Source of the DNA: an uncultured Gammaproteobacteria bacterium
Lineage (GTDB): Bacteria; Patescibacteriota; Patescibacteriia; JAHIZJ01
Length of the DNA: 64,000 bases
Direction: 5' to 3'
Assembly (NCBI GenBank): GCA_964371245.1
Contig: CAYJKP010000002.1
Coordinates: 102,960 to 166,959, forward strand
In this document: piece after piece, positions 38,267 to 42,896 of the stretch
How positions within the stretch are numbered: position 1 is the stretch's first letter
Layout of the letters: every line of letters starts with the position of its first letter
Notes under the pieces: generated by a model
Told to the model about the DNA's origin: nothing
The model's input: only the letters and a program-made list of their open reading frames with translations
Databases searched by the model: none
Position numbers and translations under genes: made by a program

Positions 38267-39430
38267 TTAAATTACGTTGATAAAGAGGGAAAATATCGCC
38301 GCGATCCAAAACAGCGTATTCAAGCCGATGGCGCCGACCAGGAAAAATAACAAGATAAAAACAATAATCCGACCGATATTGAGTGACATTTCGCGGAAGA
38401 CGCTCATTTCATCGACGTAATGGCCGGCATCGGCCATTTGTTCATAGGTCAAGGCGTCGAATGGCGTCCGCATAACCGTACTGGCGAGGTTGTGATAGGT
38501 TGAGGCGATAAAAATCTGATAGCCGGTCGTGACAAACGTCTTCGCACCCCAGCCGATCGCGTAAATCACCGTGCCCCAGCGAAGCAGTTTGTGTTTGGAA
38601 AAGGCGTCGGTAAACCGCCCCATGATGAGCTGCACGACGATCGTCACAAAAACCGCCAACGTAGAGACGGCGCCGATTTCGAAATAGTTGTGATTCAATA
38701 TTTGGTAGATAAAGAGCGGCCAGATGGACAGACCGATTCCATTTTCAGCCCCCTCGGCGGCATAGGCAAACAACAAACGCCGGTGCTTCGTAAAAAGGAG
38801 GCGGTAGGTTTCAAAATAGCCGTAGGAAAACTTTTCTCTCACCGGACGAGTGAAGATCAGGGGGAAGATCGACAGAAAGACTAATATAACCACAATAATT
38901 AAGAGATTTTGGTACCCATATTTGGCAATGATGAAGCCGGCCGCGATCGGAATGGTGATGCCGACCAGATCGGCGATGGCATTGAAATAGCTGAGTTGCC
39001 GGCCGCGATTTCGGCGGCTCGTGAACTCAGCCAGCTCGGTGTGATACGGCACCCAGTATAAACACCGCCAGATAGTTGTCATCCCGATTGCAATCAAGAT
39101 AAAGGTCCAAACGCCGTTTTGAACAAAATAATACGCGACGTAGGAAAGCGCTAAAAACGGTATGCCGATCATCATTGACCGCTTCAAGCCCAGCCGGCTC
39201 ATCGCCCGGGCGCCCGGCTGGATGAACAGGAGGTAGGCCAACCATTCGAGGATGTAAAACACGATCACCGCCTTGAGCGAGAAATTCAGCTTCTCGTACA
39301 AAAAGATGGGCAAAAATATGCCCAGCAGGCTCGTGGCCGCATTCTGAATCAAGCGCTGCGAATAGAGCGCGATGATGTCGGGCGTGAACTTTCCCTTTGG
39401 TTTTTCGAGTGAAAAGGTCTCTTTAGACAT
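38267..39430 (-). CDS. MFS-like polytopic membrane transporter, paralog B
   Basis: 387 aa with the same architecture as 36472-37638. Confidence 0.5.
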   Translation of the reverse strand: MSKETFSLEKPKGKFTPDIIALYSQRLIQNAATSLLGIFLPIFLYEKLNFSLKAVIVFYILEWLAYLLFIQPGARAMSRLGLKRSMMIGIPFLALSYVAYYFVQNGVWTFILIAIGMTTIWRCLYWVPYHTELAEFTSRRNRGRQLSYFNAIADLVGITIPIAAGFIIAKYGYQNLLIIVVILVFLSIFPLIFTRPVREKFSYGYFETYRLLFTKHRRLLFAYAAEGAENGIGLSIWPLFIYQILNHNYFEIGAVSTLAVFVTIVVQLIMGRFTDAFSKHKLLRWGTVIYAIGWGAKTFVTTGYQIFIASTYHNLASTVMRTPFDALTYEQMADAGHYVDEMSVFREMSLNIGRIIVFILLFFLVGAIGLNTLFWIAAIFSLFINVI

Positions 39431-42400: not shown

Positions 42401-42896
42401 GACACCAGTTGATCGGGATCGTCGCTTGATAGGCCAAGCCCTTTTTATACAATTGGAGAAAAATCCACTGGGTCCATTTGTAATAGTTTGGGTCGGTCGT
42501 ATCGATTTCGCGCGACCAGTCAAACGAGAGGCCGAGCGACTTCATTTGTTTCCGAAAGGTGGCGATGTTTGTATCGGTCGCTTGGCGGGGATGGACGCCC
42601 GTTTTGATGGCATAGTTTTCCGTCGGCAAGCCGAACGCGTCCCAACCAATGGGATAGAGCACGGCAAAACCTTTCAGGCGGCTATACCGCGCCAGGGCGT
42701 CGATGGCACTATAACTGCGAACGTGGCCGACGTGAAGCCCGTCGCCCGAAGGATAGGGGAACTCAACCAAGAGATAGCGTTTTGTCCGCTCGGTATTTTC
42801 CGGCGCCTCAAATGCCGCCTGTTCCAACCAGGTTTTTTGCCACTTCCGTTCAATTTTTTCCGGCTGATACCGTGTTCGTCGCGAAGGCAGAGGCAT
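39423..42896 (-). CDS. leuS: Leucyl-tRNA synthetase with two inserted extra domains (Ham1/RdgB-like and Nudix)
   Basis: HIGH motif (HVGHVRSYS), [48 protein letters not shown], KMSKS ([10 protein letters not shown]). Start placed at [20 protein letters not shown] (ATG complement at 42894-42896). The ORF track extends it to 43007. Confidence 0.9.
   Translation of the reverse strand: [1157 protein letters not shown]
41441..41468. repeat. Perfect 4 x 7-bp microsatellite (aattttg)4 inside the leuS coding region
   Basis: Read directly: aattttgaattttgaattttgaattttg. On the coding strand it encodes ...NSKFKIQNF.... The unit length is not a multiple of 3. Confidence 0.8.

Follow-up and report, generated by a model that had tools for sequence, protein, structure and literature searches.

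Nudix and divergent Ham1-like domains nested in the editing region of a leucyl-tRNA synthetase from an uncultured Patescibacteria bacterium

Introduction

What accounts for a leucyl-tRNA synthetase (LeuRS) that is about 360 residues longer than the canonical bacterial enzyme? The question is raised by leuS on the minus strand (39423..42896) of a 64,000-nucleotide stretch of contig CAYJKP010000002.1, hereafter called the window, from an uncultured bacterium of the Patescibacteria or Candidate Phyla Radiation (CPR), a lineage of small genomes. An initial annotation, made from the letters of the window alone, had attributed the extra length to two domains inserted in the editing region, one of Ham1/RdgB-like ITPase fold and one of Nudix type, and had taken such a fusion to be undescribed. 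In the present study, the additional length was traced to two complete enzyme domains in loops of connective polypeptide 1 (CP1), and the domain assignment first made agreed with every test applied. LeuRS that carry cargo of this modular type were found to form a family widespread in CPR bacteria, to which the window leuS belongs. The inserts themselves are regarded here, with some reserve, as putative nucleotide pyrophosphohydrolases.

Identification of the leuS product

The gene product (1157 residues, followed by a stop codon) was identified as LeuRS from a whole-protein score of 982 bits with the NCBIfam model TIGR00396 (leuS_bact; curated cut-off 548.4 bits), from a pairwise HMMER alignment with the LeuRS of Thermus thermophilus (PDB entry 1H3N; E 1e-213) and from a score of 195 bits with PF13603, the CP1 editing domain. 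Domain order, the HIGH and KMSKS signatures, the threonine-rich motif and conserved Asp of CP1, and the anticodon-binding and C-terminal domains were the same as in canonical bacterial LeuRS (1H3N and Escherichia coli 4AQ7), whereas the leucine-specific domain carried by the T. thermophilus and E. coli enzymes was absent from the window protein when this was aligned to 1H3N. The motifs listed in the initial annotation were all found, and the sequence thus described is presumably that of a working synthetase.

Five parts were distinguished along the protein, all encoded on the minus strand. The N-terminal catalytic body (residues 1-247; 42156..42896), delimited by alignment and motifs, contained HIGH in the form HVGH (residues 55-58; 42723-42734) and WIGRSEG (residues 228-234; 42195-42215). 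It was followed by insert 1 (residues 248-450; 41547..42155) and by the CP1 editing-domain core (residues 451-572; 41181..41546; PF13603 and alignment), which held the threonine-rich motif TTRPDT (residues 455-460; 41517-41534) and an 18-residue editing motif of HDxRD type that included the conserved Asp (residues 543-560; 41217-41270). Insert 2 (residues 573-732; 40701..41180) came next, and the remainder of LeuRS (residues 733-1157; 39426..40700), assigned from Pfam matches, alignment and motifs, comprised the end of CP1, the second half of the Rossmann fold with KMSKS (residues 935-939; 40080-40094), the anticodon-binding domain and the C-terminal domain. Both inserts were delimited by alignment to 1H3N, and the boundaries so obtained lay within about 25 nucleotides of those estimated at the outset.

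The position of the start codon was considered separately, since the open reading frame (ORF) list gives a minus-strand ORF of 1194 residues from its first ATG (39423..43007) and automatic gene calls likewise lengthen leuS by 37 codons (42897-43007, minus strand) to the ATG at 43007. LeuRS homology in the alignment to 1H3N began at residue 7-9 of the 1157-residue version, and the gene of a closely related metagenome contig, L088, contained a stop codon 18 codons 5' of the Met that corresponds to the start at 42896. The extension was without homology and is blocked by this stop in L088. The start at 42896, as originally proposed, is therefore judged to be better than that at 43007, and database entries for the window LeuRS are probably over-extended at the N-terminus. 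An exact look-up of the 1157-residue version returned no entry because gene callers take the upstream ATG.

The Nudix domain

Insert 2, of 160 residues, takes the place of residues 363-375 of T. thermophilus LeuRS, in a variable surface loop of CP1 that follows the sequence ...YDLPIRQVI. The Pfam NUDIX family (PF00293; gathering cut-off 21.1 bits) matched residues 595-709 of the window protein with 45.5 bits (E 9.6e-12), and a 23-residue Nudix box (residues 626-648; 40953-41021, minus strand) matched the pattern G-x5-E-x7-REUxEExGU at every position, in agreement with what had first been claimed for this insert. The G, E, RE, EE and G of the box were invariant in all seven of the closest family members (7/7).

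Structures of both inserts were predicted with AlphaFold2 from small family alignments and then submitted to a Foldseek fold search. The model of insert 2 (pLDDT 90.6, pTM 0.83) was matched with probability 1.0 to Nudix hydrolases of MutT and diadenosine tetraphosphate (Ap4A) type, at a template modelling (TM) score of 0.74 to 2azw, and the best structural matches were a mixture of MutT-type enzymes with Ap4A/ApnA hydrolases (3i7u, Rv2985, 1kt9 and 1vc8); 1f3y and NUDT2 were further Ap4A/ApnA hydrolase neighbours by structure or sequence. Thus box and fold are shared with enzymes such as 2azw, 3i7u from Aquifex aeolicus and Rv2985 from Mycobacterium tuberculosis (TM 0.69-0.74), whereas identity to any solved Nudix structure was only 16-21%. 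Unlike known Nudix hydrolases, the family of insert 2 has motifs of its own, DKKTV… and HKDENR (40875-40892, minus strand, in the window insert), and is mostly nested in CP1 of LeuRS. Position +17 after the box was F in the window protein and Y or F in its relatives, followed by an invariant F; an aromatic residue (Tyr) some 16-18 residues past the box is what we take to be a signature of ApnA hydrolases.

Among LeuRS-embedded copies the box was intact in most. Degenerate boxes, with E replaced by Q and R by A, S or T, were noted in three LeuRS, namely L005 (domain at residues 541-694), L009 (residues 559-718) and L017 (residues 87-240), and may reflect either decay of the cargo or a changed function.

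The Ham1-like domain

Insert 1, of 203 residues, falls between residues 242 and 243 of T. thermophilus LeuRS, at the tip of the beta-hairpin ahead of the TTRPDT editing motif. The Pfam family Ham1p_like (PF01725; gathering cut-off 22.5 bits) matched residues 249-323 with 30.6 bits (E 4e-7), the match being restricted to positions 1-72 of the 186 in the profile. The predicted structure (pLDDT 89.9, pTM 0.83) superimposed over its full length on structures of Ham1, RdgB and ITPA (Foldseek probability 1.0; TM up to 0.74-0.76).

Conservation was assessed from an alignment of 18 embedded copies, 43 free-standing relatives and six canonical RdgB-type sequences. The core motifs of insert 1 on the minus strand were LLATNNPSK (42123-42149), ENARRKA (41991-42011) and GTDTG (41940-41954); together with GTDTG, a 19-residue stretch of the insert supplies the N-terminal phosphate- and metal-binding residues of the fold, i.e., (S/T)xN..K, E, ENAxxK and D. 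In the 18 embedded copies these were retained as T/S in 18, N in 17, K in 18, E in 18, N in 16, K in 18 and D in 18, and they are the residues that are conserved in canonical RdgB-type sequences. Fold and N-terminal core are therefore held in common with RdgB/Ham1/ITPA (PF01725 and TIGR00042). Unlike these proteins, insert 1 is embedded in another protein and lacks GFGYDP and SHR. The canonical C-terminal GFGYDP was represented in the Ham1-like clade by x[YF]FP[LIM]R, in the window insert by a segment of 10 residues, and the SHR motif was not found in the clade upon alignment with canonical RdgB. An additional conserved segment, DPxxVKRNAL, was specific to the clade; the corresponding clade-specific motifs of insert 1 were VKRNA (41889-41903) and a 10-residue motif at 41652-41681, both on the minus strand. 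Free-standing homologues carried the same motifs as the embedded copies.

With the RdgB equivalog model TIGR00042 insert 1 scored only 28.8 bits, below the cut-off of 145.35. This failure and the replaced C-terminal motifs indicate that insert 1 belongs to a divergent clade of the ITPase/Maf superfamily as judged from sequence, rather than to canonical RdgB, so that the initial annotation was upheld as to the Ham1 fold, the designation of ITPase being putative. Members of the clade, in which the catalytic core residues are intact and the base pocket appears to be remodelled, are putative hydrolases.

Integrity and constraint of the reading frame

The possibility that the ORF is a misassembly, a chimera or a frameshift join, or that the inserts resemble inteins and are excised from the translated protein, deserved consideration: free-standing homologues of both inserts occur near leuS elsewhere, so that a mis-join was conceivable beforehand, inteins usually reside in essential genes, and a topoisomerase I (TopA) of the same cargo-carrying kind, P0052, has a genuine intein. 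The exact 1194-residue product was, however, called on 13 contigs of independent assemblies with identical neighbouring genes, among which were two larger than 1 Mb and one of 918 kb that was covered about 48x. L088 encoded a LeuRS of 95.2% identity with the same five-part layout and with synonymous divergence throughout, and the layout was common to more than 13 independent clusters at 50% identity. The frame was continuous and the composition of the inserts host-like. A Pfam scan of the window LeuRS gave no intein, Hint or homing endonuclease match, and the Cys/Ser/Thr and His-Asn residues of protein splicing were not found at the insert junctions, which read K|KVLLAT… and …LLSPA|IPVF…. An artefact was accordingly rejected, as was an intein or other mobile element; the explanation is hardly credible and for practical purposes is refuted.

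A resemblance to inteins nevertheless exists in that both are foreign, self-folding modules of about 150-200 residues set in frame in an essential housekeeping protein, and in that their hosts are alike (aminoacyl-tRNA synthetases and topoisomerases, P0052 having intein and cargo domains together). Unlike inteins, the inserts have no splicing residues or homing endonuclease and are under purifying selection, and they presumably remain in the mature protein.

Selection was evaluated from the ratio of nonsynonymous to synonymous substitution rates (dN/dS) by the method of Nei and Gojobori (NG86) for a single pair, the window gene and L088. Ratios for host segments were 0.046 (N-terminal body), 0.039 (CP1 core) and 0.107 (C-terminal part), and 0.064 for all host segments (confidence interval, CI, 0.044-0.090), as compared with 0.120 (CI 0.074-0.199) for the Ham1-like insert and 0.046 (CI 0.009-0.115) for the Nudix insert. 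Thus, both inserts are coding sequence under strong purifying selection, and the Nudix insert is constrained as tightly as the synthetase core.

The GC content, GC3 and codon usage of the inserts were indistinguishable from those of the host; codon-usage cosines were 0.90 and 0.87 for the inserts and in neither case fell below the range of the host control (0.86 +/- 0.02). Since composition and codon usage match the host, neither insert appears to be recent, and recent horizontal acquisition was rejected.

A heptamer repeat remarked upon earlier in the coding region near the editing domain was confirmed with Tandem Repeats Finder as 4.6 perfect copies of AATTTTG (41441-41472, minus strand; 100% perfect). 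The tract is in frame in CP1, 25 codons downstream of insert 1, and encodes 10 residues. The tract of L088 differed by two substitutions (TCA to TTA and TTC to TTT) but not in length, and P0040 had QDSKNQIENF in the same CP1 segment, aligned by eye without change of length. A phase-variation switch was rejected on these grounds; comparison with L088 and P0040 gave no sign of slippage or of a regulatory role, and the repeat is regarded as incidental on sequence grounds.

Distribution of cargo-carrying proteins

Insertions in related LeuRS were surveyed, as the initial annotation had advised, in the best 80 LeuRS loci of a one-genome-per-species data set. A Nudix domain was present at the same CP1 loop in 19 of the 80, including L006 (1395 residues), which carried the Ham1-like domain and a third insert in addition. 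Pfam searches of odd-sized LeuRS indicated that site 1 was occupied by a Ser_hydrolase or alpha/beta-hydrolase domain in L005, L009, L020, L021 and L024, that L020 had hydrolases at both sites and that L017 had its Nudix domain at site 1. Insert-free LeuRS were also found among close relatives. The HIGH, KMSKS, threonine-rich and HDxRD Asp motifs were retained in 26, 25, 26 and 23 of 28 insert-bearing LeuRS and in 47, 51, 51 and 43 of 51 insert-free LeuRS, respectively. The idea that the inserts compensate for a dead editing site was rejected because the editing motifs of the window protein are intact, and it is contradicted also by the comparable retention of motifs in the two groups.

In the same survey, the Nudix-bearing LeuRS of L004 (2154-5062) was called as three consecutive ORFs of 194, 279 and 382 residues. 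Frameshift errors, decay to a pseudogene or a true division of LeuRS into pieces could each account for this.

A word-indexed search with insert 1 returned only free-standing proteins of 201-203 residues, mostly from Candidatus Uhrbacteria, at 43-48% identity. An exhaustive hidden Markov model (HMM) search with the Ham1-like domain against 1.84 billion cluster representatives returned 1944 matches, 32 of them below 1e-30, and the best 150 were examined. Sixteen of these 150 were long proteins (980-1620 residues): 13 LeuRS, two topoisomerase I and one AlaRS-type protein. The uniqueness of insert 1, as suggested by the word-indexed search, was overturned by this search and by the LeuRS genome loci. 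P0027 and P0039 had exactly the architecture of the window LeuRS. Other LeuRS paired the Ham1-like domain with a Ser_hydrolase, HAD or nucleotidyltransferase domain or with two Nudix domains, and some had it after CP1 or at the C-terminus. In P0122 (1610 residues), also a LeuRS, Nudix and Ham1-like domains shared site 1, a further insert lay downstream, and a second Nudix-box-like stretch was seen by eye. Insertion sites and domain combinations therefore vary freely among LeuRS.

Of the other hosts, the TopA protein P0052 (1621 residues) carried a Nudix domain, the Ham1-like domain and an intein of LAGLIDADG type, and the AlaRS-type P0113 (1287 residues) carried a guanylate kinase, the Ham1-like domain and a Ser_hydrolase. 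The TopA host P0063 is probably from a small-genome archaeon, given that it is surrounded by archaeal-type genes (TYW2/Trm5 and an Elp3-like protein). Free-standing, full-length homologues of the inserts were represented by P0001-P0004, P0019, P0020 and P0015.

The architecture has been present in public sequence data since about 2016, for example in P0021 (UniProt A0A1G2FBJ3, Candidatus Portnoybacteria RBG_13_41_18), a LeuRS whose annotation goes no further than 'hypothetical protein' or 'Leucine--tRNA ligase'. No description of these LeuRS architectures was found in a full-text literature search that left subscription journals mostly outside its reach. The proposal that the fusion was undescribed thus holds for the accounts that could be searched, whereas in the sequence record the fusion is recurrent.

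A second protein with a nested enzyme was noted in the same genome. The SecD homologue of the window (16079-17743, minus strand; 554 residues) contained a PPIC-type parvulin peptidyl-prolyl isomerase (PPIase; Rotamase_3, residues 150-235, 84 bits) between SecD_1st (residues 73-133) and the P1-head subdomain (residues 271-366).

Origin of the inserted domains

Site 1 was always at the tip of the beta-hairpin, with insertion after …EIxFxV and ahead of an 11-residue stretch, and was a turn of 4-8 residues in insert-free relatives. Identities of host and Ham1-like domain were uncorrelated (r = 0.13, p = 0.34, 55 pairs). Thus P0027, the closest relative of the window protein by host sequence (57% identity), had a Ham1-like domain only 36% identical to that of the window, which was 47-48% identical to free-standing Uhrbacteria proteins and hence as close to these as to any embedded copy. 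For 13 of the 18 embedded copies the nearest relative was a free-standing protein. The lack of correlation and the free-standing nearest relatives favour repeated capture of the Ham1-like domain, or exchange between embedded and free-standing copies. Divergence of the Nudix domain at site 2 tracked that of the host (r = 0.37, 190 pairs), which is consistent with an older and mainly vertically inherited insertion. Both inserts were probably captured from free-standing genes, in the case of the Ham1-like domain more than once.

Free-standing relatives were in two cases located close to leuS. P0015, which is 42% identical to insert 2, lay 579 bp upstream of an insert-free leuS of 807 codons on the same strand, with no other gene between them, and an Uhrbacteria Ham1-like gene lay 2.6 kb downstream of an insert-free leuS of 757 codons. 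Five other free-standing Ham1-like genes were viewed in 16 kb or more of surrounding sequence, and none of them had leuS nearby. A general leuS neighbourhood of such genes is accordingly unsupported, the association being seen in Uhrbacteria only and, for Nudix, in a single case.

In many species representatives of the Clostridia (L054, L080, L053, L072, L038, L082, L079, L052, L062 and others), a canonical free-standing rdgB/Ham1 gene was noted on the leuS strand, at 0-4 kb upstream of that gene. This proximity could reflect either lineage synteny or a functional association.

Other features of the window

The gene that follows leuS (38267-39430, minus strand) overlaps the leuS stop by 8 nucleotides at its start, and an apparent operon extends to about 35606 in the order leuS, MFS transporter, Sua5/TsaC, MFS transporter and KsgA/RsmA; the same gene order was noted in L085 and L086. 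Elsewhere on the minus strand, a giant ORF of 3351 codons (24621-34676) was followed by an ORF of 929 codons (21805-24594) for which no Pfam match was obtained, and the ORF at 10611-12290 resembled a type IV secretion coupling protein (TrwB/TraG/HerA-like). Two tandem tRNA-Met (CAT) genes lay 90 nucleotides apart on the plus strand (1974-2049 and 2140-2216).

An island of low GC content (about 45813-54000; GC 0.35-0.43 as against about 0.51) began with a large serine recombinase (46556-48244, minus strand), which abuts an ORF for a comM/YifB-like Mg-chelatase (45813-46643, minus strand) whose Pfam match starts at position 38 of the 207 in the profile. The island, which also encodes a protein with an SNase domain (51251-52255), is probably an integrated element that interrupts comM, to judge from these sequence features.

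Discussion

The results lead us to lean towards the interpretation that the two inserts would be autonomous nucleotide pyrophosphohydrolases nested in permissive, solvent-exposed CP1 loops of a working LeuRS. From the motifs and the selection acting on them, both domains would act independently as enzymes, the Nudix domain probably on an NTP or a dinucleoside polyphosphate and the Ham1-like domain, because its base pocket appears to be remodelled, probably on an NTP other than ITP or XTP. LeuRS would serve mainly as an essential and constitutively expressed carrier with which the cargo is co-expressed, and aminoacylation and editing would continue alongside. Since imprecise deletion would destroy leuS, the cargo would also be protected against the tendency of reduced genomes to lose DNA by deletion. 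That embedded copies may be working enzymes fits with the nesting of guanylate kinase, an essential enzyme, in the AlaRS-type P0113.

Several considerations weigh against this interpretation. Activity and substrates of the inserts are read from motifs and selection only, and dN/dS was calculated from one pair by NG86 alone. LeuRS was by far the commonest host of the Ham1-like domain (13 of the 16 long proteins among the best 150 of 1944 matches), which could mean a role specific to LeuRS rather than permissiveness of its loops, and the gene neighbourhoods of P0015 and of the Uhrbacteria Ham1-like gene point the same way, neighbourhood together with fusion being a classic signature of functional coupling. 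Without the canonical base-binding motifs, the Ham1-like domain could bind nucleotides and not hydrolyse them, and the degenerate boxes of L005, L009 and L017 suggest that catalysis is not always kept.

A functional coupling of the inserts to LeuRS chemistry is for these reasons a possible, if rather doubtful, alternative. The Nudix domain might clear Ap4A, Ap3A or other adenylate-derived by-products of the synthetase, the ITPase-fold domain might remove aberrant NTPs where ATP is consumed, or both might make LeuRS activity responsive to the nucleotide pool. The predominance of LeuRS hosts and the two leuS-proximal genes argue for coupling, as do the rdgB genes upstream of leuS in Clostridia, the co-divergence of the site-2 Nudix domain with a host whose core is no more tightly constrained, the Ap4A/ApnA hydrolases among the neighbours of insert 2 and, if it is indeed a signature of that group, the aromatic residue at position +17 after the Nudix box. 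Substrate, however, is not predictable from a Nudix fold; close LeuRS relatives manage without inserts; sites and combinations vary and include cargo as unrelated as HAD, alpha/beta-hydrolase and nucleotidyltransferase domains; and the five free-standing Ham1-like loci described above had no leuS nearby. Nesting of the same Ham1-like family in topoisomerase I and in an AlaRS-type protein tells against coupling as well and weakens the suggestion, made in the initial annotation, that the inserts hydrolyse mischarged adenylates. It is still less probable, and in our estimation quite improbable, that the inserts are non-catalytic and serve as structural spacers, oligomerisation modules or nucleotide-binding sensors. 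Ham1/RdgB proteins are dimers, the Ham1-like insert lacks GFGYDP and SHR, is matched by Pfam only at profile positions 1-72 and evolves at roughly twice the rate of the host, and some Nudix copies in LeuRS have degenerate boxes. The perfect box of the window protein and the intact boxes of most LeuRS copies are difficult to reconcile with such a role, as are the Ham1 residues that bind metal and phosphate, each retained by 16-18 of the 18 embedded copies from three different host proteins when checked as the initial annotation had recommended, the dN/dS of 0.05-0.12, which is far below neutrality, and the occurrence of the same motifs in free-standing homologues.

Synthetases with accessory catalytic domains are familiar from the cis editing domains of ThrRS, AlaRS and ProRS, and NF040702 (isoleucine--tRNA ligase, N-acetyltransferase domain-containing) is likewise a synthetase with an extra enzyme-type domain. 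By comparison with these, the extra domains of the window protein are unrelated to amino-acid or tRNA chemistry, and cargo of this type is internal to loops instead of terminal, modular, and interchangeable between lineages and hosts.

A bolder conjecture, which we consider unlikely, is that reduced-genome symbionts systematically nest nucleotide and house-cleaning enzymes in loops of essential proteins and that the LeuRS cargo is coupled to adenylate chemistry; the symbionts in question would be CPR bacteria and probably also DPANN-like archaea. Among the nested cargo seen in this study were ITPase-like, Nudix, alpha/beta-hydrolase, HAD, guanylate kinase, nucleotidyltransferase and PPIase domains, and among the hosts LeuRS, AlaRS, topoisomerase I and SecD. 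If true, this would be a way of organising genomes and proteomes that has gone unrecognised, and clearance of Ap4A or aberrant nucleotides on the enzyme would be a new quality-control layer of a synthetase.

Few enzymes have been studied as thoroughly as the aminoacyl-tRNA synthetases, and CP1 of LeuRS is a drug target (benzoxaboroles). The present findings indicate that this LeuRS family tolerates from one to four whole enzyme domains in CP1, at sites that mark loops open to large insertions and are thus of use in engineering, and that, within the ITPase superfamily, the Ham1-like domain represents a new clade whose base pocket is putatively remodelled. A testable question also follows from them, namely whether aminoacylation in bacteria with minimal genomes has a physical link to Ap4A turnover or to the sanitation of nucleotides. 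The occurrence of the same cassettes in topoisomerase I and an AlaRS-type protein, and of a PPIase in SecD of the same genome, points beyond LeuRS to what may be a general and undescribed route by which reduced genomes keep accessory enzymes, namely by nesting them in essential proteins.

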